This document shows, one piece after another, positions 1,686-49,467 of a stretch of DNA of 64,000 bases (its first letter is position 1; every line of letters starts with the position of its first letter). A program made the position numbers and the translations under genes. The notes under the pieces were generated by a model, which was not told the origin of the DNA, ran no database searches, and worked only from the letters and a program-made list of their open reading frames with translations. The stretch comes from a virus (Duplodnaviria; Caudoviricetes). The stretch is from positions 7,479 through 71,478 of the IMG/VR virus record IMGVR_UViG_2690315807_000002; one strand, given 5' to 3'.

Positions 1686-1796
1686 TCGTTAAACGTGAGG
1701 GGATATAACGCCCCTCATTGTTGTACTTACTTAAACCTTAGCACATTCATCATGTTAAGACGTTACAACATTTTAAGTGTAATAGGGAGGGTCACA

Positions 1797-3632
1797 GTGT
1801 CTGAAGCTAATGAAATACTTGAAATTCTCAAAAAGGCTGAAAAGAAAAATGCCCAACCGAGCCGCACTAAAAAAACAGAAATTTTAAAATCTAAAAAAAA
1901 GTTAACTAAAAGAGAACAGCAGATTTTGGATATCGAATTTTCTATTAGAATGCCAGATAACTATACGCTTGTTAATACCCCTGAACTACTTGAGCGGCTA
2001 GTGAAATATTATAAAGCATATAAAAAGATGTATCAAGGCGATGCTTTTGTCTATTTAGATACTGAGACTTATGGACTAAACAACTGGCGGGACTCTTTAA
2101 TATCCATTTCTATCGGTTTTGAATCAGAACAATATTTTAACATACCTATGCGCAAATTTCTACATAATATGTCGAAGGATGTCGAAACTCTGCCTTTTGA
2201 TGTTGTATCCAACGCGCTGAGACCATTGTTAGAAGCTGATTATATGATTGTAATGGCAAACGGGAAATTTGATATTCACGTACTCAAAAATTGGGCAAAT
2301 ATTGACATTACCTTTAATATTCATTGGGATATTATGATAATGGGTGGGTTGTTAAACGAAAACAAACCAAAAGGTTTGAAGGAATGGTACAACTCATACA
2401 CCCTCCCTTGGCTAATTGAGCAAGGTAAAATGAGTCGTGACGAACTCAGTCGGCCAACCTTCAAGTTTGGTAGCATGTTCGACAAAATCCCATATGATAG
2501 TATACCTCACAGTATTGCCAATTATTATGCTTGCCATGACGTGTTCATGACACATTGGGTGTTCAGATATCAAAAATTCATTATAGAAAATCCTTCTTTT
2601 GGACTATATCGTGTTTACAAATTGTTCAGAGAAGTTGAGATGCCATTGGTGGCAATTTTCGCCACTGCAGAACGGCGAGGTGTAGAACTTGATTCTAAGT
2701 TTCTCAAAGACATTATAGGTAGAGTTCTTCAAGAAAAGTTGGATGAACTTAAGAAAGATATCTTCAGTGTCTTAGGCAGAACGATTACCCTCACCAAATC
2801 AAGAACACGTCAGCGACAGGGTATTAAGTTCAAGGAAGAATATGAGATCGTTGAAGAATTTAATCTTGCTTCTCCCGCGCATCTAGCAATTAAGTTATAC
2901 GTGGAGCACGAGATACTTGAGCCTGAGATGGTTTACGTCAAAGAACTCAAGCGTAAAGTACCTACGCAATCAACAAGCAAGAAGGTACTGACAAGGAATA
3001 AGAATGTCCTGGTCACTGTAAACGACAAGGCTCATAAAATAGTAGATTATATTCTGGAATATCGAGGTCTTTCCAAGCTGATTGATGCTTTTTGCAATAA
3101 ACTTCCTAATGACACAGTGGAAGGTATTATACACTGTTCCTACAATCAAATGGTTCGTACCGGGCGTGTATCCTGTTCAGCACCGAATCTGCAACAGATT
3201 CCATCAAAGTTCGACCTTATACGATATGCATTCCGTGCATCTGCTGGTCGCTTGCTAGTTTCTGCCGACTTTTCACAACAAGAACTTCGCTGGTTAGCTA
3301 TCTTTTCTCAGGAGCAAACCCTCATTGATATATTTAAGTTGGATTTGGATATGCACAGTCGGGTAACGTGCCAGATTCACGGATTTGATTACGATATGTT
3401 TGAGATGATTCGAAGTTACAAGGGTGAGTCCGAAAAAGAAACTTCTAATAAAATAGAGGAAATAAATGCGAAATATTATGGTTCTCAAGAACTTCTCTTC
3501 GCAATGACCTATCTTAATAGTAAGGAAAAAGGGGCGAACGCTTCCACTGTGGGGGGTTCAAGCCAAACGATTGAATACCTTGCTGGATTATTTGAACTGC
3601 TCCGTAAGAAAACTAAATCCGTAGTGTTCGGT
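1797..3632 (+). CDS. polA: Family A DNA polymerase, exon 1 (3'-5' exonuclease and polymerase up to motif B)
   Basis: ExoI LDTET, ExoII NGKFD, ExoIII YACHD, RTGRVSCSAPNLQQIP, motif A ADFSQQELR, motif B start RKKTKSVVFG; GGGAGG RBS before GTG 1797. Confidence 0.92.
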
Positions 3633-4140
3633 AACAACTATGCCGAATTTAAACTCCTCTCATATCGGTGAAATCTAAGTGGCTGTCGAGAGACGCTCCA
3701 TACGGCAATACCGAGCTAAAACTCGCTAGGTTAGTAGTGAATGATGGTGTAGAGACTTATCATAGGTCGCCTGACCACTAGTGGTCAAATCAATCGAATC
3801 TATGTAATGGGGAGAACAGTTATCTCTTAGATAGGATCAACCTAAGGCATTGCTCTTTACTGAAGATGCTAAATTTATCCAATATGTTTGAATTTATGGG
3901 AAATGTAAGATTACAAGGTGTCTCGAATCGCTTTGGTACTTACAGTAAATTGTGTTGAAGCATGAGGGAACTTGTTAGTATTGATCTCAGGCGGTAAAGG
4001 CTTTTCGAAAAGCACTTTAGGTTCATAGAGAACTGAGAGCGGTTAACTATCTCAAAACTAATCATCGCGAGATTGACCGCCGTAGTTTTATAACTGTTAA
4101 GGGATAGTCCACTCCCATAGAAATATGGGGATACGAAATG
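3633..4140 (+). ncRNA. Group I self-splicing intron (IA-like), no intact homing endonuclease ORF
   Basis: P1: exon UUCGGU pairs with GCCGAA (3642-3647) with U.G at the splice site; P3 3654-3659/3809-3814; P4 UCGGU/ACCGA; R GUAGAGACU at 3749; P8 AACAGUUAU 3815-3823/AUAACUGUU 4090-4098; S AAGGGAUAGUCC 4099-4110; P9 hairpin; terminal G4140; removal restores motif B in frame. Confidence 0.92.
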
Positions 4141-4899
4141 GTAGTTTACGGTATTACTGAGTTAGGGCTAAGTGAGCAAATTGGTTCTAGTAAAGAGGAG
4201 GCTAAGCAACTAATTGAAGGCTTTAAATCCTCCATGCCCAACTATCTTATGTGGGAAGCAACAACTCACAAGGAAGTAATGGAGAAGGGGTTCATAGAGA
4301 CTGTTCTCGGACGTAAACGTAGATTTGGTGAGACCATTGCCGAAGCTAAACAAGAGGACATCTGGAAGAAGTCAGGATGGCATTGGAAGATTGAAAAATG
4401 CAAACGTCAGTCCTGCAATGCCAAGATTCAGGGTTCATCTGCTGACCAAACCAAGAAGGCAATGGTTGATCTATTTTACCCGACCCGTCTTGACGGAACG
4501 AAGTGTTTAGACCGCCGTGAGTGGTTACGTGAAGGCTATATGTCTCAGCTTGAGAAGGACGACCTTCACCTTGTTCTTCAGGTGCATGACGAGTTGATTT
4601 TTGATGTCCCAGAGACAGTTGACCCTGCAGCGCTCAAAGCGATCACGGACACTATGGCGAATGTCATCCCCAATGACGTAGGCGTTAAGTTCAAATCAGA
4701 TATTGAAGTAAGCCCTTATTGGGGTGGTAATTTCTCCAAAGAACAAATCCGTCTCATGACTGAAGGCCTGTTGGACTGGAAGGATATATTCAAGGAAGAG
4801 GTGAATAAGAAACTTTCTAAGTTCGGCTTTGACTACAAAGTTGGAATTTTTGCTGATGGAGACTTAGATGATGAGAATGATAGTGAAGAAAACACTTAA
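4141..4899 (+). CDS. polA: Family A DNA polymerase, exon 2 (motif B end to C-terminus)
   Basis: VVYG completes motif B; ETVLGRKRR, NAKIQGSSAD, motif C VHDEL. Confidence 0.92.
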   Translation, partial: VVYGITELGLSEQIGSSKEEAKQLIEGFKSSMPNYLMWEATTHKEVMEKGFIETVLGRKRRFGETIAEAKQEDIWKKSGWHWKIEKCKRQSCNAKIQGSSADQTKKAMVDLFYPTRLDGTKCLDRREWLREGYMSQLEKDDLHLVLQVHDELIFDVPETVDPAALKAITDTMANVIPNDVGVKFKSDIEVSPYWGGNFSKEQIRLMTEGLLDWKDIFKEEVNKKLSKFGFDYKVGIFADGDLDDENDSEENT

Positions 4900-4962: not shown

Positions 4963-5430
4963 GTGATTTTTATGCCATCCGTAGGCATTCGAATATGGGG
5001 AAATTCCCACCTCGCCCCTCAACGTGAGGTGGAATCTGGAGTGAATGACATAATCGTTATCAACGTCAACGGTACAGACTACACAATTGTCCTTGATGCA
5101 GGAAGTTATATATCAAGCCATGAGCATGTAACCTCTAGCTTTGTACAGCATGTGAACGACAAATTGATCGAGGTAGGCTGTCCTGTTATTGCAAAGGTAG
5201 GAGGTATTCATGATGACCAGCCACGTACAGTGCTGTTATTTGAGACATCTGAATCATCCGAGAGAGTGACAATGTCTATTGAGGGGCCAGGTGCAGTAGA
5301 GTTTATCGGTGATGCACCATACCAGACAGTACCAGCTGTTGAAGAAACCCAGATTGACGGTCTACCTTCTAAAGTTGCAGCACGTGGTACCGGCATGATT
5401 TCCCTCACAGGAGAAATTGGGGTATCTTAA
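4963..5430 (+). CDS. Hypothetical beta-rich protein, possibly virion-associated
   Basis: Clean ORF with RBS, preceded by CTTATAATG motif; C-terminus resembles the LPSxIxV repeats of the 2838-aa protein. Confidence 0.55.
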   Translation: MIFMPSVGIRIWGNSHLAPQREVESGVNDIIVINVNGTDYTIVLDAGSYISSHEHVTSSFVQHVNDKLIEVGCPVIAKVGGIHDDQPRTVLLFETSESSERVTMSIEGPGAVEFIGDAPYQTVPAVEETQIDGLPSKVAARGTGMISLTGEIGVS

Positions 5431-5484
5431 TCTCCCTAAACAGTAAAGTAATTTTGATAATTCATAGTAGATAATTAGTAAGTC

Positions 5485-5508
5485 AAAGACCTCTAAGGGG
5501 TCTTTTTT
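5485..5508 (+). terminator. Rho-independent terminator
   Basis: AAAGACC-tctaagg-GGTCTTT followed by T run. Confidence 0.7.
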
Positions 5509-5516
5509 CATTGCCG

Positions 5517-5545
5517 CACCCTTTCGGGCTAGTGGGTTGACTACT
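5517..5545 (+). promoter_or_regulatory. Putative element-sigma promoter CACC-N18-GACYA (copy 1)
   Basis: Same bipartite motif and spacing at 8616, 10586 and 12062. Confidence 0.55.
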
Positions 5546-5695
5546 AGAGTGTATGCCAAACAAGCAACTGATAGGAGATGATCCCATGACAACAGGAAAA
5601 TCCCACTCCAAGAACGTATATCCCAACGAAGTCAAGCCTTGAAATCACTTCCATTAGCAAGTGCGTGGAGCGACTATTAGAAAGAGGGTAACAAT

Positions 5696-5935
5696 ATGAA
5701 GATGACAACACAACAATACGCAGAAATCATCGCAGGTAAGGTTGCTCATACTGCAAAAAACATTGCAAAGAACAGTGGTCGTAAGGAAGAAGCAGATTCC
5801 GATGTAGCTGCCGCAATGATTGTAACGTTCGCAGAAGAGATGATGGAAGTCATCCGAAAGAGTACACCCCATACACCAAACCCCTTATCTAAAACCTTCG
5901 TGAAGCTGAAACGGTTTCTGCGAGGTGTTGGGTAA
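5696..5935 (+). CDS. Hypothetical protein
   Basis: ORF with GAGGG RBS, translationally coupled to the next gene. Confidence 0.6.
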   Translation: MKMTTQQYAEIIAGKVAHTAKNIAKNSGRKEEADSDVAAAMIVTFAEEMMEVIRKSTPHTPNPLSKTFVKLKRFLRGVG

Positions 5936-7053
5936 TGTTTGAGCGGTACTTAGTTGGCGGACGACTTGACCCACCCTACTTTCCGACGAAACCAAGCCCT
6001 CACTTTGTAGGTAGGGAAATCATAATTCCAGCTAAAGCGAACGGGGATAGAACTGTCAAGGATACCTTTACAATGTCACATGACCTGGAGTTCTATGCGG
6101 TATCCATCCGAACCAATTCGAACAACGTCGAAGACTACTGGAATCTGATGATAGATGGCAATTTTGTTGCTAAGAACATCCACTGTAAAAACTACGAGGA
6201 GGGATTATATTTTCAGGTGGCACATCCTGTGGCGGCAGGTAAAGAGTTCCTCTTTGAGTACCATACACCTCAAGGAGACAGAAGAAATTTTGAGTTAATG
6301 TTTCACTTTCTTACTGAGCATAACGTTGATTTGGTACTCACTGAAACAACAGATTTGGGAAATTACCCTGATCCTTCCGAAGAGCCAGTAGATGACCAGC
6401 AGCCACCGGATACGCCTGAAGATGGTATACAGCTTCCCATTACGTGGAAACCGTTTATTTCCGTCGTAGATGCATACAAATGGACACAGAACCTTGGCGT
6501 TTCGGTAAACTTCGCAAACAAACTTGATGCAGCAAACTATGTGACTGAAGCCTTGGCGCTTTTACTGAACACATGCGATGGCTTTAAAGAGATGATTCAG
6601 AAGCACAAGCTAACTATTAACATAGAGAATGGAAACGGAGCTAATGGTTACTTTGATCCTGCTTCTGGAAAGGTAGTCATAAGCAAGACGTATGACTACA
6701 CTAACGCCGCCACAATTGCTCAAATGGAGTACAGCACAGGGCAGAAGTCTTCACCCGACAAGCTGCGCACAATCATTCATGAGATTGGGCACTGGCTTCA
6801 TTATCACAATATCGGATCACAGCAGTTCTTTCAATATTCAGCACTTGACCCTGATAACTACGGCGTGAAGACAATACTATCAAACGCTCAATCATCTTAC
6901 ATAGCAAACAACCTGTGTAACTACGCTACCAAGTGGTTTCCTATTGAGTTTGTCCCTGAGACATTCACTGCCAAAATAACCGGAGTCCCCATTGATGCTA
7001 AAATATGGGAGTGGTACGAGCAATACGGTGGATACAAATGTATGGGATGGTAG
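5935..7053 (+). CDS. Fusion of a tail-protein-like N-terminal domain and a HEXXH zincin-like domain
   Basis: N-terminus YLVGGRLDPPYFPTK is paralogous to 30969-31355; Pro/Asp linker; IIHEIGHWLH plus downstream EFVPETF. Confidence 0.7.
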   Translation: MFERYLVGGRLDPPYFPTKPSPHFVGREIIIPAKANGDRTVKDTFTMSHDLEFYAVSIRTNSNNVEDYWNLMIDGNFVAKNIHCKNYEEGLYFQVAHPVAAGKEFLFEYHTPQGDRRNFELMFHFLTEHNVDLVLTETTDLGNYPDPSEEPVDDQQPPDTPEDGIQLPITWKPFISVVDAYKWTQNLGVSVNFANKLDAANYVTEALALLLNTCDGFKEMIQKHKLTINIENGNGANGYFDPASGKVVISKTYDYTNAATIAQMEYSTGQKSSPDKLRTIIHEIGHWLHYHNIGSQQFFQYSALDPDNYGVKTILSNAQSSYIANNLCNYATKWFPIEFVPETFTAKITGVPIDAKIWEWYEQYGGYKCMGW

Positions 7054-7123
7054 ATATCTATCAATAAAATTGCAAGTTTTTATGAATGTATTAAATAAAA
7101 GCAACATAAGGGGGCTATGCTTA

Positions 7124-7342
7124 ATGGACATTACAGTTCCTTGCGTATTCTGTAAACACTTCAATCGGGACGAACGTGCAAGAATGACTTGTGCTGCATT
7201 CCCTAACGGGATTCCCAAGGACATTCAAGAAGTAAAAGTGATTCATACTTACCAATACCCTGCCGACAATGGGGTTCAATATGAAGCGTTAAGTGATAAT
7301 CAAGACTATTTCAAATATTTTAAGGGAGTGACTCGATTATAA
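7124..7342 (+). CDS. Small Cys-rich protein (CxxCxH...CxAFPxGIP), candidate partner/immunity protein
   Basis: CVFCKH...CAAFPNGIPKDI...H...DNGVQY; RBS before ATG 7124. Confidence 0.65.
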   Translation: MDITVPCVFCKHFNRDERARMTCAAFPNGIPKDIQEVKVIHTYQYPADNGVQYEALSDNQDYFKYFKGVTRL

Positions 7343-7500
7343 ATGTATGAGCAATTGCATTCCTTATCATTTAGATAAACCTACCACCCAACGTAATGAA
7401 TTTATGAAAACTACAGCTAATTATAGAAGAATCGAAGACGAGTTTAAGATTTTGCAACTCTAACTAACCATATATCGACCACTATAATGAGGTGATCTGA

Positions 7501-7854
7501 ATGATAGGCTTCTTAAACAAGTGCCCTCATTGTGGGGCACGTTCTTCTTTTACACCTGAAGAAATGGAATGCGATAAGGCACTAGTTCTGTGGTGTAACA
7601 ACTGCGGTAACTTCATAAATCAAACCTTGACTATCGAAACTGTTCTCAGGTGGTGGCTTCGCTACAATGAAGGGGAGGAAACAATAGTCCCTCCAGTCAG
7701 CAGGAAAAATCTTCAGAAACTCATAAATATTGAGCAGATGCTTAACGAAGAAGGCGAGTGGATGGAAAGTATAGAGATACACATTAAAGACTTCAGAGAG
7801 TACCATTATACAGAAGTAGAGGGTGAAAACCATGAAGGTTCAGGTAACGGCTAA
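7501..7854 (+). CDS. Zinc-ribbon hypothetical protein
   Basis: CPHC...CNNC; GAGGTG RBS. Confidence 0.65.
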   Translation: MIGFLNKCPHCGARSSFTPEEMECDKALVLWCNNCGNFINQTLTIETVLRWWLRYNEGEETIVPPVSRKNLQKLINIEQMLNEEGEWMESIEIHIKDFREYHYTEVEGENHEGSGNG

Positions 7855-8161
7855 GTTCTTCCTTGATAATGGGGAAGTTAAGCGAGTCGATTGGTTTGAG
7901 ATTGATCCTAAGTTGATAGGTAAGATTGTAGAGAATGGTGTTGACAAGCCTATTGAAATTATTCTCAAGTCGGCAAAGGACGTACAGGATGAATACAAAA
8001 AGATATTCCGCAGGCTTCATCGCCAGGGAGAGATGTTCATTGTTGAGAACATCAACGGAGAGTTAGCAGGTGTACCTTTTACCAAGGTGACCTACTGGAC
8101 ATTAAAAGCGAGAGAGGTTACAAAGAATGTAACCGAGTCTACTAATAGAGCGAGTGTCTGA
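7832..8161 (+). CDS. Hypothetical protein
   Basis: ORF overlapping the previous gene, GAGGGTG RBS. Confidence 0.6.
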   Translation: MKVQVTAKFFLDNGEVKRVDWFEIDPKLIGKIVENGVDKPIEIILKSAKDVQDEYKKIFRRLHRQGEMFIVENINGELAGVPFTKVTYWTLKAREVTKNVTESTNRASV

Positions 8162-8571
8162 TATACCTTGAGAAAATCTGAGTACTAACCTCTCACTTCT
8201 ACCATTGCTAGCTAACCTGAGATATTTGAACTGGAGAGACTGGGTAACTTATACACTACTACGGTCATCTCTCCCTCGTACAACCTTCAATCGTGACTGC
8301 CACTTTTAATCGCTAATGGATAATACAAGGGCGTATCTGTCACTGGCAACTGTTCCGCACAGATACTAGTGCACCGAAGGCAGGAAGGTGAATGTAGGTT
8401 GCATAATTAGATGAGAGTCGTGGGGTCACAGACGTATTTAGATATTATAATTGACAATATCAGACCTTCTAATAGTTGCTCGTTGACTATCTGGAAGGTC
8501 TATTTCATGATGTAAGAGTTCCTGAAACAAGGGAGAATGAGTCTAAAAGGGCATGAAAATAAAATGTACGT

Positions 8572-10893: not shown

Positions 10894-11604
10894 ATGAAGA
10901 AAATTAAGTTGACAGTGGCATTAGCCATGACGATTACTGCTTGCTCCCCGCATGAGAAAACATCGGATTTCTATTATAATCCGATCCCCCAAGTTTCTGT
11001 GTCAGAAAGTGTGTTTAACGTTAGACACCTCTTGTCGATAGAGACGAATAAAAAAGAGCCAATCCCACTGATTGCAAAAGCTGTACTCGAAGCAAAACCA
11101 GTACCTAAAATGACAGCTGCTGCAGATAAACCGAAAATTAAGCCTAAATCTACTGCTGTCGTTACAAAGTCTTCCACTGTGCAAAAGAACATAGTGAACC
11201 ATCTTCTCAAGTACAAGGTAAACAAATCAGACTCTACTAAGTTTGCCACTCTTATCGTACAGAATAGCAAGACTTACGGTGTCGATCCTTATACTATACT
11301 AGCAATTATTCAAGTTGAAACGGGGGCGACATTCGACCCTAACCTTGTCAGTACTCACGGTAGCGTAGGCTTGCTACAGGTGCTCCCCTCCACACAGAAA
11401 TATATGAATATATCGGGGAGTCTCAAAAAACCTTCAATCAACATCAAAATTGGCACTAAGTACCTTGCCTATACTCAAAAGAGATTCGGCGATGAATTGG
11501 GAATCGTTGCTTATAATCAAGGCGAGGGGAACGTTAAACGAGGGACGTATAACACTAAGTATTTGACCAAAGTTAATAAAGCATTGGCAAAAATCAAAAA
11601 GTAG
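10894..11604 (+). CDS. Lipoprotein lytic transglycosylase (SLT domain)
   Basis: Lipobox-type signal MKKIKLTVALAMTITAC; AIIQVET, GLLQV, IGTKYL, AYNQG motifs. Confidence 0.85.
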   Translation: MKKIKLTVALAMTITACSPHEKTSDFYYNPIPQVSVSESVFNVRHLLSIETNKKEPIPLIAKAVLEAKPVPKMTAAADKPKIKPKSTAVVTKSSTVQKNIVNHLLKYKVNKSDSTKFATLIVQNSKTYGVDPYTILAIIQVETGATFDPNLVSTHGSVGLLQVLPSTQKYMNISGSLKKPSINIKIGTKYLAYTQKRFGDELGIVAYNQGEGNVKRGTYNTKYLTKVNKALAKIKK

Positions 11605-12322: not shown

Positions 12323-13276
12323 GTGCCGAGTCCCAACTACCTACAGCTCAGGGATAAAGAGATGAAGGATATGCATAATATGGTTCTCTTGAAGGCGTGT
12401 AAAGAGAACAGAGAACTCATGGGAGACTTCTTGAATGCTAATCGAGACTTTATCTTCTCTATTATCAAGCACTACAAGGGGAGTATCCTAGAACTTAAAA
12501 CGAAGTTCCGAATCACAGAAGACGAACTATACCAACATGCTTGCATAGGCATTCTGACTGCTATCAAGGATTTTGATTTTGAACGAGGCATTAAGTTCAC
12601 AACATTCGTTGTGCGCCCCATCCTCTGGGAAATCAATCAGCTTCTTTATAGTGATTCTCAGTCTGTAAGGTTGAGCAGGGGGGCGGTTGACCTCATTAAG
12701 CAAATGGTCGGGATTGAGGATGCTCTAGGGTATCGCCCCGCTGAAGAAGAAATGTCAGCTCTACTTAATGTGTCAATTGAGCGCTATCGCGAGATTGCCA
12801 TGTTCAGCGATGGCCTTGAGCATTATGACGGGATTGATAATTTTGAATTCGTCAACAAGGATGAGAAAATCCTTGAAGAAGATGTGGCCAATCGTCTTTA
12901 TGTAGAGCAACTACTGGATGACCCTATATTTAATGAATTCGAAAAGAAGGTCATGCGCCTGCTCTTGAGCGATACAAGTAACAACAATGCACAGATTGCT
13001 GAACAACTGAACGTATACCCCATGACCATTAGCCGTACTCTCGCACGAATCCGCAGCAAAACTGTGAACAGAGAGTTGAAGGAAGAGGAAACTAAGAGCT
13101 CTTCCAAGTATGAACGGGAGATTGAACTTATCGCTCAGGCAACAAAGGAGCGTAATGAGAACTTGTGCATCAATAAAATTACAGAACTACTTGAGGTGTG
13201 TGGGTATGACACCAACGCCTACACAACCAGAGTGCTTTATTACATCCGTCAGAAAGCTAATCAACAAAGTGCTTAA
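12323..13276 (+). CDS. SigF/SigG/SigB-like RNA polymerase sigma factor with C-terminal extension
   Basis: DELYQHACIGILTAIKDFDFERGIKFTTF (region 2), LGYRPAEEE (region 3), AQIAEQLNVYPMTISR (region 4). Confidence 0.85.
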   Translation: MPSPNYLQLRDKEMKDMHNMVLLKACKENRELMGDFLNANRDFIFSIIKHYKGSILELKTKFRITEDELYQHACIGILTAIKDFDFERGIKFTTFVVRPILWEINQLLYSDSQSVRLSRGAVDLIKQMVGIEDALGYRPAEEEMSALLNVSIERYREIAMFSDGLEHYDGIDNFEFVNKDEKILEEDVANRLYVEQLLDDPIFNEFEKKVMRLLLSDTSNNNAQIAEQLNVYPMTISRTLARIRSKTVNRELKEEETKSSSKYEREIELIAQATKERNENLCINKITELLEVCGYDTNAYTTRVLYYIRQKANQQSA

Positions 13277-25284: not shown

Positions 25285-25905
25285 ATGACACAACAAAACA
25301 GCCTCTTATCGGAGGATTCGGTTTATAAGAAGAAGCTATTTTACGACAACGGAGTTCAGTTTACACAGGTCAAGGCGAAACTGATTACGGAATATAAGCC
25401 TCCAACTCCAGTACTTAAGACATATGTCAATAAGACCCTAGCATCTTCTGCGGGGCTCGTGCAAAATGGTACTTCCCACTATGACGCTACACTTACCATG
25501 CTGTTCTATTCCAAGAAGGAATACGCTGATTGGCTTCAGTATATTGGATCACAGCATAAGTATTACGACGAAAAGGGAACAGTTTACATCGGCATCGTAA
25601 CAGGTGAACCCAATATCAGGACTGCAGAGATGGAAACCAAGTACATCGTAACCGTTGGTATGTCCCTTGTCCGCAAACAGGAGTTCGAGTACAAATACCT
25701 GACCGAGTTCATAGACATTGAGAACCATTGGGCAAACAAGTACATCGACAATATGCAACAACTTGGACTTATTGCAACGAATTGGGAAGCAGACGGGGAG
25801 TCCGTTGTTAACTTCCGTCCGGACGAAGCGGCCACACGGGCAGAGTCAGTAACGTTGCTTATGAGGACTTATAGATACGTGGATAAATTACTAAGGGGGT
25901 ATTAA
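25285..25905 (+). CDS. Distal tail (Dit)-like protein with C-terminal SLH motif
   Basis: First gene after the tape measure; FIDIENHWA...GLI...FRPDEAATRAESVTLL is an SLH signature. Confidence 0.7.
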   Translation: MTQQNSLLSEDSVYKKKLFYDNGVQFTQVKAKLITEYKPPTPVLKTYVNKTLASSAGLVQNGTSHYDATLTMLFYSKKEYADWLQYIGSQHKYYDEKGTVYIGIVTGEPNIRTAEMETKYIVTVGMSLVRKQEFEYKYLTEFIDIENHWANKYIDNMQQLGLIATNWEADGESVVNFRPDEAATRAESVTLLMRTYRYVDKLLRGY

Positions 25906-30968: not shown

Positions 30969-31355
30969 ATGTCTAGCGGCGCTAATTTTGCAAGTTACTT
31001 GGTAGGCGGTAGACTCGACCCTCCTTTTATGCCAACAAAAACAGAGCCGTACATTGAAGGGATTATGGTAGAGTCCCAAATGGCGGGCAAGGTCGAACAT
31101 AAGCTAACCATTGAAGAAGATTGCGAACTGCTCTCTATTGCAGTAGGCGTATCCAACTATGAAGCAAGGGACTACTGGAACTTGTATGTAGGGGAACGGC
31201 TAGTCTGTAAGAACATTTACACAAAGGATTTACCGGAGGGCATGTACTTGACGGCAATCATCCCGTGTAAGCAAGGGACGCAGATTCATTTTGAGTTCTT
31301 TAATGAGGGCGGCAAGCCCAAGGTCGTATGGGCAAACTACCAAACTCTCAAGTAG
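30969..31355 (+). CDS. Small tail-module protein (YLVGGRLDPP family)
   Basis: Paralog of the N-terminus of 5935-7053. Confidence 0.65.
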   Translation: MSSGANFASYLVGGRLDPPFMPTKTEPYIEGIMVESQMAGKVEHKLTIEEDCELLSIAVGVSNYEARDYWNLYVGERLVCKNIYTKDLPEGMYLTAIIPCKQGTQIHFEFFNEGGKPKVVWANYQTLK

Positions 31356-31370
31356 GAAGAAGGTGAATAA

Positions 31371-34031
31371 ATGGCAGATACTTCATATCAACCGACGCCG
31401 TGGCTCGACACGACTATCAATGAAGAGTTCCTGCTGGAAGGGCTTGCTGGAATTATGACAGCCAATGGGTGGACAAAGGTTACTGAGTTTACCAAGGTCG
31501 TCTACTCTAACAAGCTAACAAAGCCTACAATCAAGCGGTTCTATCTTCCGCTGGCTAACCCTAAAATTGATTTGCCGAAGGTACTCAACGACGATTACTA
31601 CATTTTCATTGATGGGAAGATTGCCCCAACATCCTATTATACGGCGGTCAAGAATCCAGACGAGACAACCACGTTCACGTTTGAAGCAGGTGTGTCCGGT
31701 CAGGTAGCTATTTACTACAGCACAGTCGGGTCCACGGATGCCTTCGACTTCTACGTGACCAAGCATATCATCGTCAAGAACATATCGGGAAACTTATTCG
31801 GTATGGCGATGATGGCAAAAGTCAATGAGCAGATTGGACAGACAGGGTGCAAAGTACCATTTGCAATCTACGATAAAAATGCAGATTACGGTACGCAGTT
31901 GACACCGCAGGACAGCGGCGTATTCTCATGGGCCATCCAGAAGGCAAACGAAGATGCACTCTTTGAGCGACACACGCTTTACTTTTACCAGCTTGAAAAG
32001 TGGATTGGAAATGGGAAGATGTTGGTGGGTTGGGAGAAAACTGATGAACTGAAACGGGTTTCTCTGGACGTAGAGGTGCAGACAAGCATGTGGGGGCTGG
32101 ACGATAACACGAATGCTCTTCAGTCGAGAATAACGGACGCGTTCCCTCAGATGTATCAATCTCCAATCGTTACAGCAAGGACTCGTATTCCTCAGCTTGA
32201 ACATACAGAGAAGATTGCTTTCGTGGACGTGAAGTATACGAACTGGTGGGATGATAGCAAAGTGTTCGTCAAAGGATTCATTGACGGAAAAAGTATTATG
32301 TTAATCATCTTAGCTGACACTGCTCCGATTTGGGACAGCAATGCCGTACCTGCGATTCCTCTTTACATGGGAGACTTCGACGTAAATGGCCTGACTGAGG
32401 AAGTTATTAATCGGGATATCACGTTTGACTTCTACCGGAAGACGACTAAGACCTCGACAATCATCTCAGGAAAGCCAATGGTCAATGCAGGTTCTTATGT
32501 AAAGGTTTGGCTCATGGGTGACACGGACGGCGACATGCCTGACGAAGCAGTCAAACTAACCATTGCAGGACAGGAGATTGGTCGGTTCAACACTGTGGGG
32601 GCGAAAGAACCGTCAAACAACAAGAATGATGCTCAGTTGATGGGTCAGTTTGATATCACAGGTATCGAGGGTATGTCCTCCGTAACCATTGAAGCAGAAA
32701 GTGGGGATGGGGTAAGTGGTTACACTCCGGTATCCGGTCGAATGTTCCTTGAGGTGCATATCGAGACCAATAGGAACGCTGAGGGAGCACCGTCTGCTCT
32801 GTTCTCAGGAACAGCGTACAACAAAGAGGGGGCAGACGTAGAAGCCGCACTCAAACAGTCAGCTAAGTTCGATTACGATGATGCGTCAGTTAAGCAAGAG
32901 ATTCTACTGCCTGTTATGAAGGAATACCCCCACTACCCAAGTAACGGCGTTGACTCAATCATGGTCAAACGTAACAAGTTCGGAGCAAGGTATCAGGCGC
33001 ATTACCTGTCATGGAATGTACCGTCAAACACTATGCCGCCACCCAGGGAAGATTCTGACGGACACAAGCACCCAAGAGCATGGAAGGATTACATGAATGA
33101 ACAATACAAGTACCAGTTTAGTCCTTCAAGGTATAGTGGCAAAGCCCATTCATCCCGTGCGCTCCTGGTTCATCCTGAAGATGGCACGTTCGGAACACTG
33201 CGAAACGTTATTTTAACGTCTCCCTTAACTATAATGAATGGTGACGAGTTAAAGGCTGTGAGGGATTACTGCGATGACGAGAATAGGTATGAAGTTTATT
33301 CCTACTACTTGGTCGAAGGCATCTCGCCACTGACAAAGAGACCTGCAACGCCGTTCAGACCTGCCGCACTAGGCATCCTGAAGGCGGGCTACACTCTCCC
33401 TGAGATTCCTCCTGCACCACCTGAGCCACCAGCCTTGATTCTAACCATCGACCCTGCTTACTCAAGTGTAGAAGAGGAAACACCAATCAGGTTTACTTCT
33501 ATCTACAGTAAACACTCTCCCATTACAAACTTCAAGTGGGAAGTAGCAAGCGATGTGAACAAGGGAAGCTATACGGTCGATAATGCAACATTTACGTTCA
33601 ACAATGTCGGCACGTATTCGGTCAAGCTTACGGTGTGGAATGAATTAGGTCAGAAGGCAACGGGTACGGCGACCGTATCGGTAACTGCCAAGTACGTTCC
33701 ACCACCACCTGCTCCACCACCACCCGCAAACACATTGCAGTGCGGTAAGCTGAACGACTCTGGCGGCGGTGCTTACACCGAAAAACTCCATGAGATGGGT
33801 AACACGTCTGGACGAGTGGTAATCACCTACAACATGTACGGAGTAGCTGACCGAATGGATGTTTACTATCAGAATCAGTTGCTTGCAAGCACGAACACTG
33901 AGGTATCCAATGGCGGTTCGCTTCAGTTCCAGTACAGTCCTGTGGGCGGTGTGACGCAAATTAAAGTAGTGATGAGTTCTAGTTCAGGTTCAGGTTCATC
34001 GTGGGAATACTTGGTAAACTGCCCTGTGTAA
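31371..34031 (+). CDS. Baseplate/structural protein, paralog 1, with PKD-like domain
   Basis: Shared FxPSxYSGKxH...VHPxxG motif; FNNVGTYSVKLTV (PKD-like); Pro-rich linkers. Confidence 0.7.
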   Translation: MADTSYQPTPWLDTTINEEFLLEGLAGIMTANGWTKVTEFTKVVYSNKLTKPTIKRFYLPLANPKIDLPKVLNDDYYIFIDGKIAPTSYYTAVKNPDETTTFTFEAGVSGQVAIYYSTVGSTDAFDFYVTKHIIVKNISGNLFGMAMMAKVNEQIGQTGCKVPFAIYDKNADYGTQLTPQDSGVFSWAIQKANEDALFERHTLYFYQLEKWIGNGKMLVGWEKTDELKRVSLDVEVQTSMWGLDDNTNALQSRITDAFPQMYQSPIVTARTRIPQLEHTEKIAFVDVKYTNWWDDSKVFVKGFIDGKSIMLIILADTAPIWDSNAVPAIPLYMGDFDVNGLTEEVINRDITFDFYRKTTKTSTIISGKPMVNAGSYVKVWLMGDTDGDMPDEAVKLTIAGQEIGRFNTVGAKEPSNNKNDAQLMGQFDITGIEGMSSVTIEAESGDGVSGYTPVSGRMFLEVHIETNRNAEGAPSALFSGTAYNKEGADVEAALKQSAKFDYDDASVKQEILLPVMKEYPHYPSNGVDSIMVKRNKFGARYQAHYLSWNVPSNTMPPPREDSDGHKHPRAWKDYMNEQYKYQFSPSRYSGKAHSSRALLVHPEDGTFGTLRNVILTSPLTIMNGDELKAVRDYCDDENRYEVYSYYLVEGISPLTKRPATPFRPAALGILKAGYTLPEIPPAPPEPPALILTIDPAYSSVEEETPIRFTSIYSKHSPITNFKWEVASDVNKGSYTVDNATFTFNNVGTYSVKLTVWNELGQKATGTATVSVTAKYVPPPPAPPPPANTLQCGKLNDSGGGAYTEKLHEMGNTSGRVVITYNMYGVADRMDVYYQNQLLASTNTEVSNGGSLQFQYSPVGGVTQIKVVMSSSSGSGSSWEYLVNCPV

Positions 34032-34076
34032 TAACAGGGCTTCATACAAGCAAATAAGTGAAGGGGTGTTATTTAA

Positions 34077-35552
34077 ATGCCATTTATCGACACAACGCCT
34101 GCATCTTTTATCCCAAAGGTAACGGAGCAGGATATACAACCGCGTTTGGGCGACCTGCTTGCTACTCAAGGGTGGGAGACGGTAGCAAACTTTAAGAAAG
34201 TGACATTTGATTCAGGCATAATGCGAAGCACTTATACCGGACTTGATACTACTGACATTCCGATTTACGTAGCAGAGCATTTCATCTACAAGAACACGGA
34301 GGGTAAGATGTTCGGGGTAGCTGTCCTTGGTACTTGGAATCAGAATCTAGGTGTGCTGAGAAAGTTAAACAAGTCCCCTGACACTAAAGCACCTGCTCCT
34401 GCGACACTCCAAGTATTCTCTGAATGGGCGACAAACGAGTTCCGTAAGTACCGTTCTCCACAAACCTTGTACTTTTACATGGTCGAGAACCTTGCTGGAC
34501 TGACTACAAACAACCCTGACATTACATTGCCTTGGCTAAATACCTCAGAACTCAAGAGGGCAGTGTTGGATATCGAAGTTGAAGTTTCAGGTTGGGTGGG
34601 CACAGGTGCATCAGCTACTTTTACAGTAACTAAAGCTGAAGGTAATCGGATGCAGTCTCCTATTATGCAAGCTGGTCTTCGGACAAACCTGCTGGAAAAT
34701 TACTATGATGACACTATCAACTACGCCATTCAGAATACGAACTGGTGGGCTGACTCTGAAATCTCCATTAAAGGTCACTTGAACGGAGAAAGCCTGTTCT
34801 TCATCATCCAGTGTGATAATGTACCCGCACCGGAAGGGAATCTTGTTCCAGTCATTCCTCTTTACTTCGGTAAGCTAGATGCTATTGAAGAAGGTGACGA
34901 TGCTTATGCAATGTTCACGGGTAGTGTGCCTATCGTATCTAGTACAGGTACGGCGGGGCTGACAGCAATCTCCGAATACGACTTTGATGACACCGCGAAG
35001 AAGCAACCAAACATCATGCCGCTCATGAAGTCTTATCCTAAGTTCCCTGCGAACGGTTTGGATAACATCATGGTAAGCCGTGGTAAACTAGGTGCTCGTT
35101 ATCAGGCTTACTACCTGTCGTGGAACGCCCCTGCAAATGCTATCCCTCCAATGCGTACTTCAGTGGATGGTAAGAGAGATTACCCAAGGGCTTGGAACAA
35201 CGCTGAGAATCCTCTTTACAAGTATTCCTTTAACCCATCCCGATACAGCGGTAAGGTTCACACCTCCAAGCTGTACGTAGTACATCCAGAAGAAGGGGTG
35301 AGGGGAGCACTGAAGGATACTATCGCATTGTCGGCGCTGTCCTTTAACGCTAACAAGTTGCGTGTAAAGAAGGAGCATTGCCCTGACGAGTTCGATGTAT
35401 TCCGTTACTTCTTGGTCGAAGGCGTATCGCCACTGACCAGCAAGCCAGGAACTCAGTACCGCCCAGCGGGTATCGGATTGTACTTCAACACAGTCAATGA
35501 CGAAGGAGTAGAAGTTACTTCTACGCCCCCAACCCCGCCTGTAAACCCATAA
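34077..35552 (+). CDS. Baseplate/structural protein, paralog 2
   Basis: Extensive similarity to 31371-34031 (TNWW, YQAxYLSWN, PRAW, LVEGxSPL). Confidence 0.7.
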   Translation: MPFIDTTPASFIPKVTEQDIQPRLGDLLATQGWETVANFKKVTFDSGIMRSTYTGLDTTDIPIYVAEHFIYKNTEGKMFGVAVLGTWNQNLGVLRKLNKSPDTKAPAPATLQVFSEWATNEFRKYRSPQTLYFYMVENLAGLTTNNPDITLPWLNTSELKRAVLDIEVEVSGWVGTGASATFTVTKAEGNRMQSPIMQAGLRTNLLENYYDDTINYAIQNTNWWADSEISIKGHLNGESLFFIIQCDNVPAPEGNLVPVIPLYFGKLDAIEEGDDAYAMFTGSVPIVSSTGTAGLTAISEYDFDDTAKKQPNIMPLMKSYPKFPANGLDNIMVSRGKLGARYQAYYLSWNAPANAIPPMRTSVDGKRDYPRAWNNAENPLYKYSFNPSRYSGKVHTSKLYVVHPEEGVRGALKDTIALSALSFNANKLRVKKEHCPDEFDVFRYFLVEGVSPLTSKPGTQYRPAGIGLYFNTVNDEGVEVTSTPPTPPVNP

Positions 35553-46124: not shown

Positions 46125-49100
46125 ATGGGTTTGAGAATCGGATACATTGAATTAGTTTCACCCAAGGCAACAGATGTGACAATCAACATACCAGCGGGAA
46201 CGCAGGGCGTGTATGCAACCGATGTTCTTGTAGGGATTGACCACGTGTACGTCCTTGCAGGTAACATGAACACAGTGGCGCAGTTTAATAAGAACGCTGA
46301 CGGTTCAATTGGTACTTATATCAGGACGGTAAACTGGTACACGATGGACACTACCATCGCACAGATTTGTGCTAATACGTCCTCTGTTCCTTACGCCTAT
46401 GCCTTATACATAGAGGGCGGAGTTGAGTATCTAGTTGGGTGGGGAACAGCAAACGCAATCTATAAGTGGGTCATTAACCCCTCTACGGCGGCAATATCGG
46501 GTAGAGTGTCTTACAATACTACTCTTGCAATGACTTCTTACGGTCGTGCAGGTTGGGACGGTGGAGAGTTCATCTACTTCGCTCGTATGCCCCGTAACAC
46601 TTCGCCTAGAACGGCAGACATTTATCGCTGGAATGTAAAGACCCCTGCTGTAGCACCTGTTAAGTTGGTTACCATACCTAACACATATAGCATGGATTCC
46701 AGCTACACAGGTAGTGGTTTGCTAGTGAAGGCGAACGTAGTCTATTGGGGTTCGGGGGCGAATCAGTCCAATGGGTTTTTGGTAGGTTTCGACCTGACCA
46801 CAGGACTTCCGGTAACCCCTTCAGGCACGTCCAATCCGATAATAGCCGCTAACTTACAGTCTATCGGGGTTACTCCGATAGCTACTGAACGGGGAAATAT
46901 CTCCCTAAGTGCCTTGCATCCAAGCACTGCCTACTACTTCACAACTGCGGTGGCGACTATCAAACATATTGCAGTATCTTCTGAAATGCGTTTTAGGGAT
47001 AAGGTAGCACCTATAGATACGATTTCAAAACGAGATGTGTCTTTCGGTGGGGTGATTGAGCATGAGACAGGAAGCCAAGTCAGCTATAGAGTTAGGTTAG
47101 GCGCTACCGTCCTTAAGGATTGGTCAGGGCTAACGGATACCTTTGTATATATTAGTGAGGTGTTCCCTAACGATATTTTCCCTATCGGTACAAGTAACTT
47201 AGTAGTTGAAGCCGTTGACTCGCAAGGGAATACATTCTCGGAATACTCTCTAATCACCAAGACGAACGTAGCCCCTAAGATAACAAATAACTCCACCCTT
47301 CGTATTCATAGGGACGACTTCATTCTGAAGGCTTCTCTGACAGACACGGACATGGGGATGATATCCTATAGAGTGCTTGTCGGCGGGGTACAGAGATACC
47401 CTGAGACGGGTGATTGGACTGAATATGCTCAAGCACCTTTTGACATAGAAGTACCTATTCCTAATGACCTTTTTGTTGTGGGTAACACCACGGTCAGGTT
47501 GGAGATTAAGGATGACTGGTTTACCCCTTCCTCTATAGGGTTGAACATGACAGTAACCAAAGCATCTTATACACCATCACTAGCGGCTTACTCTTTCGAC
47601 AGGACTACCTTGCATAAAGAGGACTTAACATATACTGCCACATTGGGAGACCAAGACACTGATGACAAGATAGCGTACCGGATACTTATTAACAGCATAG
47701 TAGTTATTCCTTGGTCGGTTTACCAATCTGCACCAGTGTACTTGTCGCACACGTTCAAACACTCGGCTTTCAGGATTGGTTCGAACACTTTTACTATTGA
47801 GTTCAAAGATGACTTCCACACACCTGCGGTGAATAGCGCAACGGCGACAATAACTAAGACGAACTCAAGCGCAAGTATCGTACTACCTGCGGTGGTTACT
47901 CTCCACGGAGAGGACTTGACGTTCAGGTCAACTATTAACGATGCACAAGGCGACCCTGTTCAGTATCGTCTGTATTTGAACAACGTGCAGGTTTACCCTG
48001 ACAGCGGAGACTGGTCAGAGTTCTTCAAGCCACCTATCGCAGTAGCTAGGATGTTTAGGAACAGTGAGTTAAACATCGGCGCTAACCTTATTAAGATTGA
48101 AGCAAGAGATGATTTACAGACCTCCCCATCTTCTTCGACCTATACAGCAACTAAGAATAGTATAGCCCCTGCGGTTACTGTTCCAGATATTAAAGGTTGG
48201 GTGGTAAGGGCTACGGTCAGTGATGGAAATGGAGATAAGGTTGGATACCGGATTTCCTACGGCGGGGAGCAACTTTATCCTGCAAGTGGGTACACTGAAT
48301 TAGCCCCAACACCATTCGAGATTGAGTACGCCATCTCTGCTAACAAGGCAGTCGTTGGAGTATCTAAGGTACTGCTGATTGAGTTGATTGACGAGTACGG
48401 GGTTGTCGGCTCTCGAAGCACCTCTGTCGTATTACAGAACGGCGGCTTGGTTCTTTCGCCAGTTCCGTGGGGTTATGTGCAATCTTCCGTCAACGGGTAT
48501 CTCATTAGGTACAGCAACAATGCCCTCAACAACCTCAGCCGTACCGGAAAGATGACATTGGAGGGGTGGTTCTGTAAGACAGGGCAGGGGGCGAACAATC
48601 CACGGGCGATTCCCATATCCAAAGGGGCTACTTACATCGACATAGGGATATCAGGTTTTGTGATGCTGTCGATAGTGATAGGTGGCACACAGAGGACGTT
48701 CACCACAAATTACTCTGTCAAGATGAACGTATGGGAGCATTACGCATTCACCTATGACGGTAATGAGATTAGATTCTACGCTAACGGTGAGCACATCCCG
48801 CAGACGTGGACTATGTATTATGGGGCACTTACTAACACTTCCGGTATCGACATTGGAAGGTTCTACAGTGGTGGTTACAACTTCGTGGGCGGCATCACAG
48901 AAGTTAGGATGTGGGACGTAGCAAGGACGGAAGAGCAGATTAAGGGAAGCCTGTACGACACCTTGTCGGGCACAGAGGAAGGGTTAGTTTTCTACCCTGA
49001 CCTTGGGACTCCCAATCGTCCGACAGCCACTACGGTAGCAGACCGGACAGGACAAGCCGCAGGAACAATATCAGGTTCTATGCCCTACAGCGATGCCCTG

Positions 49101-49451
49101 ACTCCTACATTCACGGCAGGAGACGGGGGAGTGGTCTCTAACGTGGACTTGGGCAGGGTGGTGGCTACTCAGTCAAGTGAACCTGTTAGAGTTTGCCTGA
49201 AAAACTTTAGCGGCTACTGTATCGAGAACATCCGTGTCACTCCTGAGCAGTGGCAGTTAGACCCCGTAAGTGAGGTTGTACAGCTCAGCTACAGCAATGA
49301 GCCTTTTATTCCTGAGCCTGAGTTAGTTATTAGCGAGTACGTTGACCACTTACAGTACGCTAAGTTTTGGGTCAGGGTTAACGCAGGGGCAGATGCACTC
49401 GGCGGCGGGCTGTGTAAGCTTCACGTGAAAGCAGACATTACGTTTACTTAA
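46125..49451 (+). CDS. Receptor-binding/fibre protein with tandem Ig-like repeats and a LamG domain
   Basis: Repeats DxDxDxVxYRxxxNxxQxYP; WEHYAFTYDG...ITEVRMWDVARTEEQI (LamG). Confidence 0.75.
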   Translation: MGLRIGYIELVSPKATDVTINIPAGTQGVYATDVLVGIDHVYVLAGNMNTVAQFNKNADGSIGTYIRTVNWYTMDTTIAQICANTSSVPYAYALYIEGGVEYLVGWGTANAIYKWVINPSTAAISGRVSYNTTLAMTSYGRAGWDGGEFIYFARMPRNTSPRTADIYRWNVKTPAVAPVKLVTIPNTYSMDSSYTGSGLLVKANVVYWGSGANQSNGFLVGFDLTTGLPVTPSGTSNPIIAANLQSIGVTPIATERGNISLSALHPSTAYYFTTAVATIKHIAVSSEMRFRDKVAPIDTISKRDVSFGGVIEHETGSQVSYRVRLGATVLKDWSGLTDTFVYISEVFPNDIFPIGTSNLVVEAVDSQGNTFSEYSLITKTNVAPKITNNSTLRIHRDDFILKASLTDTDMGMISYRVLVGGVQRYPETGDWTEYAQAPFDIEVPIPNDLFVVGNTTVRLEIKDDWFTPSSIGLNMTVTKASYTPSLAAYSFDRTTLHKEDLTYTATLGDQDTDDKIAYRILINSIVVIPWSVYQSAPVYLSHTFKHSAFRIGSNTFTIEFKDDFHTPAVNSATATITKTNSSASIVLPAVVTLHGEDLTFRSTINDAQGDPVQYRLYLNNVQVYPDSGDWSEFFKPPIAVARMFRNSELNIGANLIKIEARDDLQTSPSSSTYTATKNSIAPAVTVPDIKGWVVRATVSDGNGDKVGYRISYGGEQLYPASGYTELAPTPFEIEYAISANKAVVGVSKVLLIELIDEYGVVGSRSTSVVLQNGGLVLSPVPWGYVQSSVNGYLIRYSNNALNNLSRTGKMTLEGWFCKTGQGANNPRAIPISKGATYIDIGISGFVMLSIVIGGTQRTFTTNYSVKMNVWEHYAFTYDGNEIRFYANGEHIPQTWTMYYGALTNTSGIDIGRFYSGGYNFVGGITEVRMWDVARTEEQIKGSLYDTLSGTEEGLVFYPDLGTPNRPTATTVADRTGQAAGTISGSMPYSDALTPTFTAGDGGVVSNVDLGRVVATQSSEPVRVCLKNFSGYCIENIRVTPEQWQLDPVSEVVQLSYSNEPFIPEPELVISEYVDHLQYAKFWVRVNAGADALGGGLCKLHVKADITFT

Positions 49452-49467
49452 GAAGGAGGTGAGATGA

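Follow-up and report, generated by a model that had tools for sequence, protein, structure and literature searches.

The window analysed here is a stretch of 64,000 nucleotides (nt) from a record of a tailed phage in IMG/VR (IMGVR_UViG_2690315807_000002, positions 7,479 to 71,478 of the record; coordinates below are those of the stretch), and its source is a large Jenst-like siphovirus prophage of Paenibacillus. At positions 5935–7053 of the plus strand it encodes a protein of 372 amino acids (aa) in which a paralogue of a tail-module protein is joined through a linker to a zincin, a metalloprotease-like domain. With somewhat better than even confidence, this protein can be regarded as a particle-borne, probably tail-tip-docked zinc endopeptidase of the lethal factor (LF) type that acts at the onset of infection; its presence in the particle, its docking site, its timing and its substrate are what we infer. 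Enzymes of phage particles include those fused to head proteins, as in MuF toxins and polyvalent proteins, and wall hydrolases that form part of tail proteins. In the present case a protein-cutting LF-like zincin appears to have been recruited to the tail tip by a duplicated accessory protein that is encoded far from the tail genes. The genomes that encode homologues of the 372-aa protein are from Paenibacillus and Brevibacillus; relatives of the window include the Brevibacillus siphoviruses Jenst and SecTim467, whose homologues are 73% identical to the protein, and the siphovirus morphology of Jenst is described in its report (PMC4909266).

The amino-terminal domain (N-domain) is related to a tail protein encoded in the same window. 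Residues 2–117 of the 372-aa protein align at 34% identity (BLASTP E 4e-24) with residues 7–118 of tail128, a stand-alone 128-aa tail-module protein encoded at 30969–31355 on the plus strand. A previous sequence-only reading of this DNA had reported such an alignment over the N-terminal ~125 aa and had placed the gene 25 kb from the tail operon; the first is confirmed by the BLASTP match and the second by the coordinates. Both proteins match phrog_5955 (E 6.8e-27 over residues 3–126 of the 372-aa protein; E 1.7e-51 for tail128), and phrog_28013 covers the 372-aa protein over its full length (residues 1–372, E 3.7e-197); the label 'virion structural protein' of these two PHROG families is an annotation. 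Translated in all six frames, the window has the motif GGR[LFI]D[PY]P only in the 372-aa protein and tail128.

The tail module has a recurrent gene order. In the window this consists of a hub gene (M23 and 3D domains), a 142-aa gene, tail128, two phrog_9258 tail-protein paralogues (31371–35552, plus strand; 886 aa at 31371–34031 and 491 aa at 34077–35552), which are the proposed docking partners, and phrog_11431. In a survey of the N-domain that covered the best 80 of 90 viral loci, 75 copies stand alone (124–155 aa) and five are fused. A phrog_9258-type gene lies downstream in 74 of the 75 stand-alone loci, a hub-like gene lies upstream in nearly all of them, and the order hub, tail128, phrog_9258 is also that of Bacillus phage Flasso. 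Both the N-domain and tail128 have a homologue in the phrog_5955 protein gp128 of Bacillus phage 0305phi8-36 (tblastn E 8e-10 for tail128), labelled a low copy number virion structural protein. It adjoins large virion proteins; gp128 and the 75 relatives (~125–155 aa) stand alone and have no enzyme, unlike the 372-aa protein. The annotation of gp128 reads 'single peptide identified by mass spectrometry'. Indirectly, these comparisons point to the N-domain as a particle-docking tail-tip module.

Within the N-domain, a short peptide stands out. The sequence YLVGGRLDPPYFPTK (residues 5–19, 5947–5991, plus strand) is the proposed docking element, and the GGRxDPPxxPTK peptide is the most conserved stretch across both paralogue families, with nine of the 19 shared invariant columns. 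Its mean pairwise identity is 0.81, versus 0.56 for the beta-sandwich that follows it. An AlphaFold2 (AF2) model, built from the window protein and 23 homologues, has a mean predicted local distance difference test score (pLDDT) of 85; the peptide has a pLDDT of 30–58 and residues 1–19 are disordered in this monomer model, as expected if folding happens on a partner. The remainder of the domain (residues 20–135, 5992–6339, plus strand) is modelled as a nine-strand sandwich extending from residue 20 to about 135–140 with pLDDT about 78–94. Matches of the sandwich in BFVD include ~228-aa proteins of Bacillus phage AR9.

A flexible linker rich in Pro, Asp and Glu follows (residues 136–175, 6340–6459, plus strand). 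Its 40 residues comprise 8 P, 6 D, 4 E and 3 Q and are of low confidence in the AF2 model. The alpha/beta domain starts at about residue 176 and represents a lethal-factor-like gluzincin domain (residues 176–372, 6460–7050, plus strand). The motif HEIGH at residues 282–286 (6778–6792, plus strand) would supply zinc ligands and the general base (H282, E283, H286), and downstream of it Y330, E338 and E342 (YATKWFPIEFVPETF, 6922–6960, plus strand) are aligned with SYGRTNEAEFFAEAF of LF. Eight residues, H282, E283, G285, H286, H289, Y330, E338 and E342, are invariant in the window protein and the 23 homologues. In an alignment of 20 distant members the HEIGH positions H282, E283 and H286 are again invariant, and Y330, E338 and E342 are nearly so. 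The linker and the HEIGH metalloprotease-like domain of the sequence-only reading are thus both upheld.

The structural comparisons lead to the same enzyme type. The best VIA match among 48161 PDB representative chains is the catalytic domain of LF (1yqy_A, Z 10.9, root-mean-square deviation 4.0, 170 aligned residues, model residues 172–369), followed by the Pro-Pro endopeptidases (PPEPs) PPEP-2 (Z 8.0) and PPEP-3 (Z 7.8). Foldseek gives a probability of 0.95–0.99 in most of the LF rows (E 5e-4 to 4e-3). At the sequence level, a profile of the 20-member family has LF as its top match among PDB sequences (E 0.0011), and the profile alignment pairs HExxH, Y330 and E338/E342 with HEFGH...YGRTNEAEFFAEAF of LF. 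In LF, the third zinc ligand is a Glu in the EFFAEAF helix, with which the ExxxE helix is aligned, and the Tyr that precedes this helix is catalytic. The LF/PPEP-type gluzincins belong to MEROPS family M34. The structural check that had been proposed for the two domains gives LF for the zincin (VIA and Foldseek) and generic sandwiches for the N-domain (VIA).

The likeness to LF is one of fold and motifs. Identity to LF and the PPEPs is about 12–14%, and Pfam ATLF (PF07737) does not detect the protein: there is no match at E ≤ 1 on the 372-aa protein and none at E ≤ 0.05 on 20 family members, with sub-threshold matches in two distant relatives only (P0034 and P0036). No Pfam MPTase model is among the matches of the 372-aa protein or of the 20 members either. 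Unlike LF, the 372-aa protein has neither the LF N-terminal nor its substrate-docking domains, its carrier is a paralogue of a tail protein, and it comes from a phage of soil Paenibacillus/Brevibacillus. As judged from sequence and model, the domain probably works like an LF-type gluzincin, yet it is not a member of Pfam ATLF.

The identity of the nearest enzymes bears on whether the protein might be a cell-wall lytic enzyme, in which the sandwich binds the wall and the zincin cuts peptidoglycan or an envelope peptide from within or at lysis, i.e. an endolysin of reversed order. This is highly improbable. The nearest enzymes cut proteins and not peptidoglycan, no lysin family is matched, the homologues of the N-domain have a constant place among the tail-tip genes, and holin/lysis genes are not adjacent; these outweigh the observations that the sandwich type is also used by carbohydrate-binding modules and that the phage has other wall hydrolases (M23 and 3D in the hub, and a transglycosylase at 10894–11604). 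An endolysin-like assignment was rejected for want of a lysin signature.

The zincin is also found on other carriers. A phmmer search of the full protein library with residues 160–372 yields 63 proteins, and in 52 of them, of 105–2924 aa, the match ends no more than 25 residues from the C-terminus. Pfam, applied to 38 relatives, finds Phage_Mu_F in four, ADPrib_exo_Tox in five and a TcdA/TcdB-type glycosyltransferase region in one; PHROG, applied to 48 relatives, finds MuF or minor-head N-termini in six. The union of Pfam and PHROG gives seven MuF-type carriers (P0029, P0030, P0050, P0052, P0065, P0071 and P0075). Together with the five relatives that contain ADP-ribosyltransferase (ART) domains, these provide a MuF/ART multidomain context for distant relatives; the 372-aa protein itself has two domains. 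Among the BFVD matches of the model are MuF-like minor capsid proteins as well as entries under the name of lethal factor or metalloprotease.

The closest relative outside the family is P0025, a metagenomic protein of 673 aa. Its residues 453–656 match the zincin (E 2e-21) and its residues 48–420 match the 491-aa tail protein of the window (E 1e-56) and the 886-aa paralogue (E 2e-40), while its PHROG matches are phrog_9258 and phrog_28013. Thus the same zincin is found directly attached to the type of protein that is encoded beside tail128. Another relative, P0027, has the zincin and a weak phrog_12960 N-terminus (E 9.7e-5), and phrog_12960 is the small tail-module family to which the gene that separates hub and tail128 in Flasso belongs; searches for loci related to P0027 and P0030 found nothing. 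The zincin profile, run at class level over 401 genomes, has four strong matches, all of the same lineage, and ten weak ones, mostly in frames of ~600 aa. Two 96%-complete relatives of 124 kb (L130 and L131) have no separate 372-aa gene and encode a phrog_9258 protein ending in HEMGH...EDFAEAF; this complementary distribution counts in favour of the explanation given below. In L130 this is an 848-aa phrog_9258-type tail protein (6001–8547) with an HEMGH end that is gluzincin-like by eye. The proteins found joined to the zincin support the view of it as a domain of cargo type that is repeatedly carried by proteins of the virion.

The sequence-only reading had proposed that the shared domain docks an enzymatic cargo on the tail tip, in a polymorphic-toxin-like setting with an immunity partner. 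On comparative evidence the docking part has indirect support, in that the shared domain is that of a tail-tip module protein and the zincin recurs on virion proteins; the polymorphic-toxin and immunity parts do not. In the explanation favoured here, a duplicated copy of tail128 would serve as the anchor. The GGRxDPPxxPTK peptide and the sandwich would dock on the tail-tip complex, most likely on a phrog_9258 protein encoded beside tail128, and the Pro/Asp/Glu tether of ~40 residues would hold an LF-like gluzincin with a complete set of catalytic motifs, similar in kind to those of MuF fusions and phage polyvalent proteins. Its action would fall at the beginning of infection, when it may cleave a host protein, either in the envelope or intracellular, or may free itself at the tether.

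Several observations weigh against this explanation. The chief one is the expression class of the gene, which appears to be non-structural and so is at odds with co-assembly with late tail proteins. The gene is in the replication module, just after a split DNA polymerase and 25 kb upstream of its paralogue and the tail genes. A promoter-like motif, CGACTATTA, is found at 5671–5681 (plus strand), 15 nt ahead of the start of orf79, a 79-aa helical open reading frame (ORF) at 5696–5935 (plus strand) whose stop shares one base with the start of the zincin gene (TAATG). The next copy is at 7476–7486 (plus strand), 15 nt ahead of a 117-aa Lar-like ORF, and marks the cassette boundary. The cassette between the two copies consists of three genes, orf79, the 372-aa gene and small72, a 72-aa gene considered below. 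The motif, CGACYAYTA, has eight matches in the window, all on the plus strand, where 2.7 are expected, and at least eight were found in none of 100 shuffles; six of the eight are intergenic, including those before the three-gene cassette and before the 117-aa ORF. Copies are found shortly upstream of genes at 5671, 7476, 8916, 12083, 14101 and 44845 (plus strand). The Jenst/SecTim467 report describes a promoter-like motif with 19–20 repeats upstream of replication and nucleotide-metabolism genes (PMC4909266), and CGACYAYTA may be that motif. A sigma-70 consensus scan was uninformative, with five promoter-like sites versus 7.6 expected. Since CGACYAYTA bounds the cassette and is common to non-structural genes, the cassette looks like its own unit of the non-structural class; its site and motif suggest middle rather than late expression.

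Other points on the same side concern the particle itself. The case for presence in the particle is a comparative one. Where phrog_28013 and NC_028805 are labelled 'virion structural protein', this looks like annotation transfer through the N-domain from gp128, and the label 'putative low copy number virion structural protein' of JENST_116 (KT151955) looks like the same transfer; the annotation of gp128 itself goes back to one peptide. The sandwich resembles only generic jelly-roll/GOLD-like folds (VIA Z up to 9.4) with no specific relative. Searches of PDB sequences with the N-domain profile and with the 491-aa and a 606-aa protein had no meaningful match. In Pfam, neither the 372-aa protein nor any of the 20 zincin-family members has a match that passes the cutoff of its model. 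The genomic context of P0025 itself was not recovered, and a scan of viral sequences gave only relatives of 53–54% identity over residues 1–481; a metagenome scan for this context gave a 2.5-kb fragment of a 55% relative. Homology of the HEMGH end of the L130 protein to the zincin was not shown either by hhalign (probability 9%), hmmsearch (2.4 bits), Pfam (none) or the PDB (none).

The location and motif raise the question of whether the protein is an assembly or maturation protease that does not stay with the particle. In that case the tail128-like domain would bring the zincin to tail-tip intermediates in infected cells, where it trims a tail protein or itself. We consider this unlikely, in that 75 of the 80 loci with tail128 relatives assemble the same module without such a protease, and the MuF- and ART-linked relatives point to host delivery over morphogenesis. 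A gene in the replication module behind a non-structural promoter-like motif is what such a protease might have, and several features are compatible with self-cleavage: the Pro-rich tether together with the likeness to PPEPs (Z 8.0 and 7.8) allows it, and self-removal is plausible for P0025, where the zincin is at the C-terminal end of a tail protein. In addition, Iyer et al. favour autoproteolysis for many of the metallopeptidases (MPTases) of polyvalent proteins (PMC5512222).

The sequence-only reading termed the architecture polymorphic-toxin-like and called for a survey of homologues with swapped C-termini. No swapped C-termini are found among 24 homolog clusters (52–99% identity), and the zincin is kept in all. 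The full N-domain, linker and zincin are present in 22 of the 24 clusters (363–377 aa), and the other two (326 and 332 aa) are without the N-terminal ~45 residues. At the level of loci, 26 in number and not deduplicated, the full architecture is kept in all 26. Mean pairwise identity is 0.68 for the zincin and 0.56 for both the sandwich and the linker, and the higher value for the zincin than for the N-domain suggests purifying selection. All five fused copies of the N-domain in the survey of 80 loci carry the same zincin. A polymorphic-toxin-like architecture is accordingly not borne out: the variable part is the N-terminal carrier of a constant zincin, and not a C-terminal toxin on a constant carrier.

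The sole other fusion of the N-domain that was seen comes from Flasso, where a 274-aa protein is encoded immediately ahead of the stand-alone copy. The two are tandem tail128 paralogues (5146–5970 and 5983–6360 of the Flasso locus, L002) within the tail module; the C-terminal extension of the 274-aa protein is phrog_12858 (E 2.4e-16), and this is the only non-zincin cargo seen on the domain. Perhaps the tail128-type domain is a plug-in adaptor of siphovirus tail tips, of which a duplicated copy hangs exchangeable enzymes on a fixed phrog_9258 site via GGRxDPPxxPTK. This is an unlikely extension of the favoured explanation. In Jenst-like phages the adaptor would carry the LF-like zincin, in Flasso another C-terminal domain, and P0025 would have reached the same end by direct fusion. 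The zincin would be displayed outside the particle, where its target would be a host protein at the surface or associated with the S-layer, the cutting of which gives access to the wall, or where it would release itself at the Pro-rich tether. If true, this would provide a protein-degrading counterpart of tail depolymerases.

The gene that follows, small72 (7124–7342, plus strand), encodes the 72-aa Cys-rich protein that the sequence-only reading had noted after the zincin gene, and this gene is indeed present. Its ORF starts 70 nt past the zincin gene and has a Shine-Dalgarno-like stretch, GGGGG, 8 nt upstream. The protein is of a CCCH type and matches phrog_33375 (E 4.3e-41). In 17 small72 sequences C7, C10, C23, H41 and AxPxGIP are invariant, and this suggests a zinc site; the AF2 model from these 17 sequences has a pLDDT of 43. 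These properties suggest that small72 is a separate, conserved small protein predicted to bind zinc.

A pairing of the two genes as effector and immunity protein was the other part of the earlier proposal. The zincin would be a toxin that is either brought in by the particle or active in the lysogen, with small72 as the inhibitor that protects the producer. The gene for small72 is 3–250 nt downstream of the zincin gene in all 26 loci, and no copy was found in either of the 124-kb relatives, which also are without the 372-aa gene. However, the 117-aa ORF, termed lar117, is likewise present in 26 of 26 loci, and since its linkage equals that of small72, the linkage of small72 to the zincin gene represents lineage synteny. 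In Jenst there is an additional ORF between the zincin gene and small72, and the HEMGH tail protein of L130 has no small72-like ORF after it. The mean pairwise identity of small72 (0.73) exceeds that of the zincin (0.68), the zincin is not polymorphic, and small72 has no diversification in the style of toxin/immunity pairs. The effector/immunity pair is thus not borne out, and we consider it quite improbable.

The distribution of small72-like domains also bears on the proposed pair. By a word-based search small72 is found only in this lineage, and tblastn against phages gives significant E values only for Jenst and SecTim467. A family-level scan of 301 genomes gave six matches, five of them in the same lineage. 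Distant relatives are found as N-terminal domains of an ADP-ribosylglycohydrolase, a 1049-aa weakly kinase-like protein and a 237-aa protein, that is, as N-terminal modules of unrelated enzymes, which speaks against an immunity role. One such relative is found in a setting that favours it: a small72-like domain on ADP-ribosylglycohydrolase beside a DUF4280/Phage_GPD toxin-like cassette. At this locus (L041 8619–9860; L040/L041, G198:C1:1332000-1346000) the CCCH domain is N-terminal on the ADP-ribosylglycohydrolase, read as ORFs of 159 and 241 aa, and pentapeptide-repeat, DUF4280 and Phage_GPD-like (1066 aa) genes and a 173-aa ORF lie ahead of the fusion; the locus looks toxin-cassette-like. 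Look-alikes of small72 in the protein atlas are small viral proteins (scores 0.94–0.95). As a lead, the small72 type of protein may be wider in occurrence than the zincin. P0106 (1049 aa) has a small72-like start and a PI3/PI4-kinase-like C-terminal region, and P0029 (1541 aa) has MuF, the zincin and a PI3/PI4-kinase-like C-terminal region; small72-like and zincin domains are therefore both found in the same kind of long phage protein.

Among known systems are the LF-like MPTases of phage and plasmid polyvalent proteins; according to Iyer et al. (2017, PMC5512222), no other domain is as common in polyvalent proteins delivered by virions, and the predicted roles are autoprocessing or attack on host proteins. 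The 372-aa protein shares with them the LF-like zincin core with HExxH and helix Glu, joined to LF by profile methods, and a predicted function in autoprocessing or as a host-directed effector. Distant relatives of its zincin are found in long proteins with MuF, ADP-ribosyltransferase, kinase-like and glycosyltransferase domains. In contrast to the polyvalent proteins as described there, it is short and of two domains, its partner is a tail-tip and not a head or ejection protein, and its gene is outside the structural module. MuF polymorphic toxins (Jamet et al. 2017, PMC5576092) also consist of a virion domain with an enzymatic C-terminus followed by a small ORF, and some of the zincin relatives are true MuF fusions. 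The 372-aa gene differs from these in that it is outside the packaging module, its C-terminal domain is constant and an immunity role of the small ORF is unsupported. Phage_Mu_F has no Pfam match at E ≤ 1 on the 372-aa protein, whose N-domain is phrog_5955.

Tail-associated wall hydrolases of siphoviruses of Gram-positive bacteria, of which the M23 and 3D hub of the window is an example, are likewise tail-tip enzymes for infection. These act on peptidoglycan and form one chain with a core tail protein, whereas the 372-aa protein has a zincin of protein-cutting type on a duplicated accessory protein encoded elsewhere. Among the papers listed by literature searches, none has a title or abstract opening that describes an LF-like zincin anchored by a tail paralogue; the supplements of PMC5512222 and PMC5576092 may include zincin relatives.

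Other features of the window are as follows. Upstream of the cassette, after a 155-aa ORF, a hairpin with a T-run (5485–5505, plus strand; 9-bp stem, 3-nt loop; a match to consensus only) is terminator-like and may end the upstream transcription unit. Homologues of orf79 are upstream of the zincin gene in ten of the 26 loci; orf79 has no Pfam family at E ≤ 1 and no PHROG match at E ≤ 0.001, its single weak PHROG match being phrog_32480 (E 0.003). The ORF lar117 (7501–7854), with weak Lar-like matches, has an N-terminal CxxC...CxxC zinc ribbon, and its match to the Pfam model for Lar-like restriction alleviation (E 0.0026) is below the cutoff. A Megablast search of positions 5600–7900 against phages gave no match. 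DNA polymerase I is encoded in two ORFs, 1695–3671 (658 aa) and 4138–4899 (253 aa), with a gap of 466 nt; an Rfam scan, introns included, and a tRNA scan of the whole window gave nothing above threshold. A sigma-factor-like protein is encoded at 12323–13276. In the tail module, a 206-aa protein encoded just after the tape measure (25285–25905) has a Pfam match to the S-layer homology (SLH) domain (E 6.2e-5, 23.3 bits versus a cutoff of 20.8), a hint that wall polymers that bind SLH are engaged by the tail tip. The structural region ends with two proteins with RCC1-like repeats (phrog_16766, 46125–51021), followed by a 2838-aa ORF (phrog_11333, 51124–59640).

The analysis corrects a tempting but unsupported toxin/immunity reading of this locus. 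If the favoured explanation is confirmed, the 372-aa protein would be a simple and testable instance of siphoviruses equipping their adsorption apparatus with an enzyme as cargo, and it would provide the first functional handle on a zincin family that is outside all Pfam models. Jenst and SecTim467 are cultured phages, and experiments are therefore feasible.

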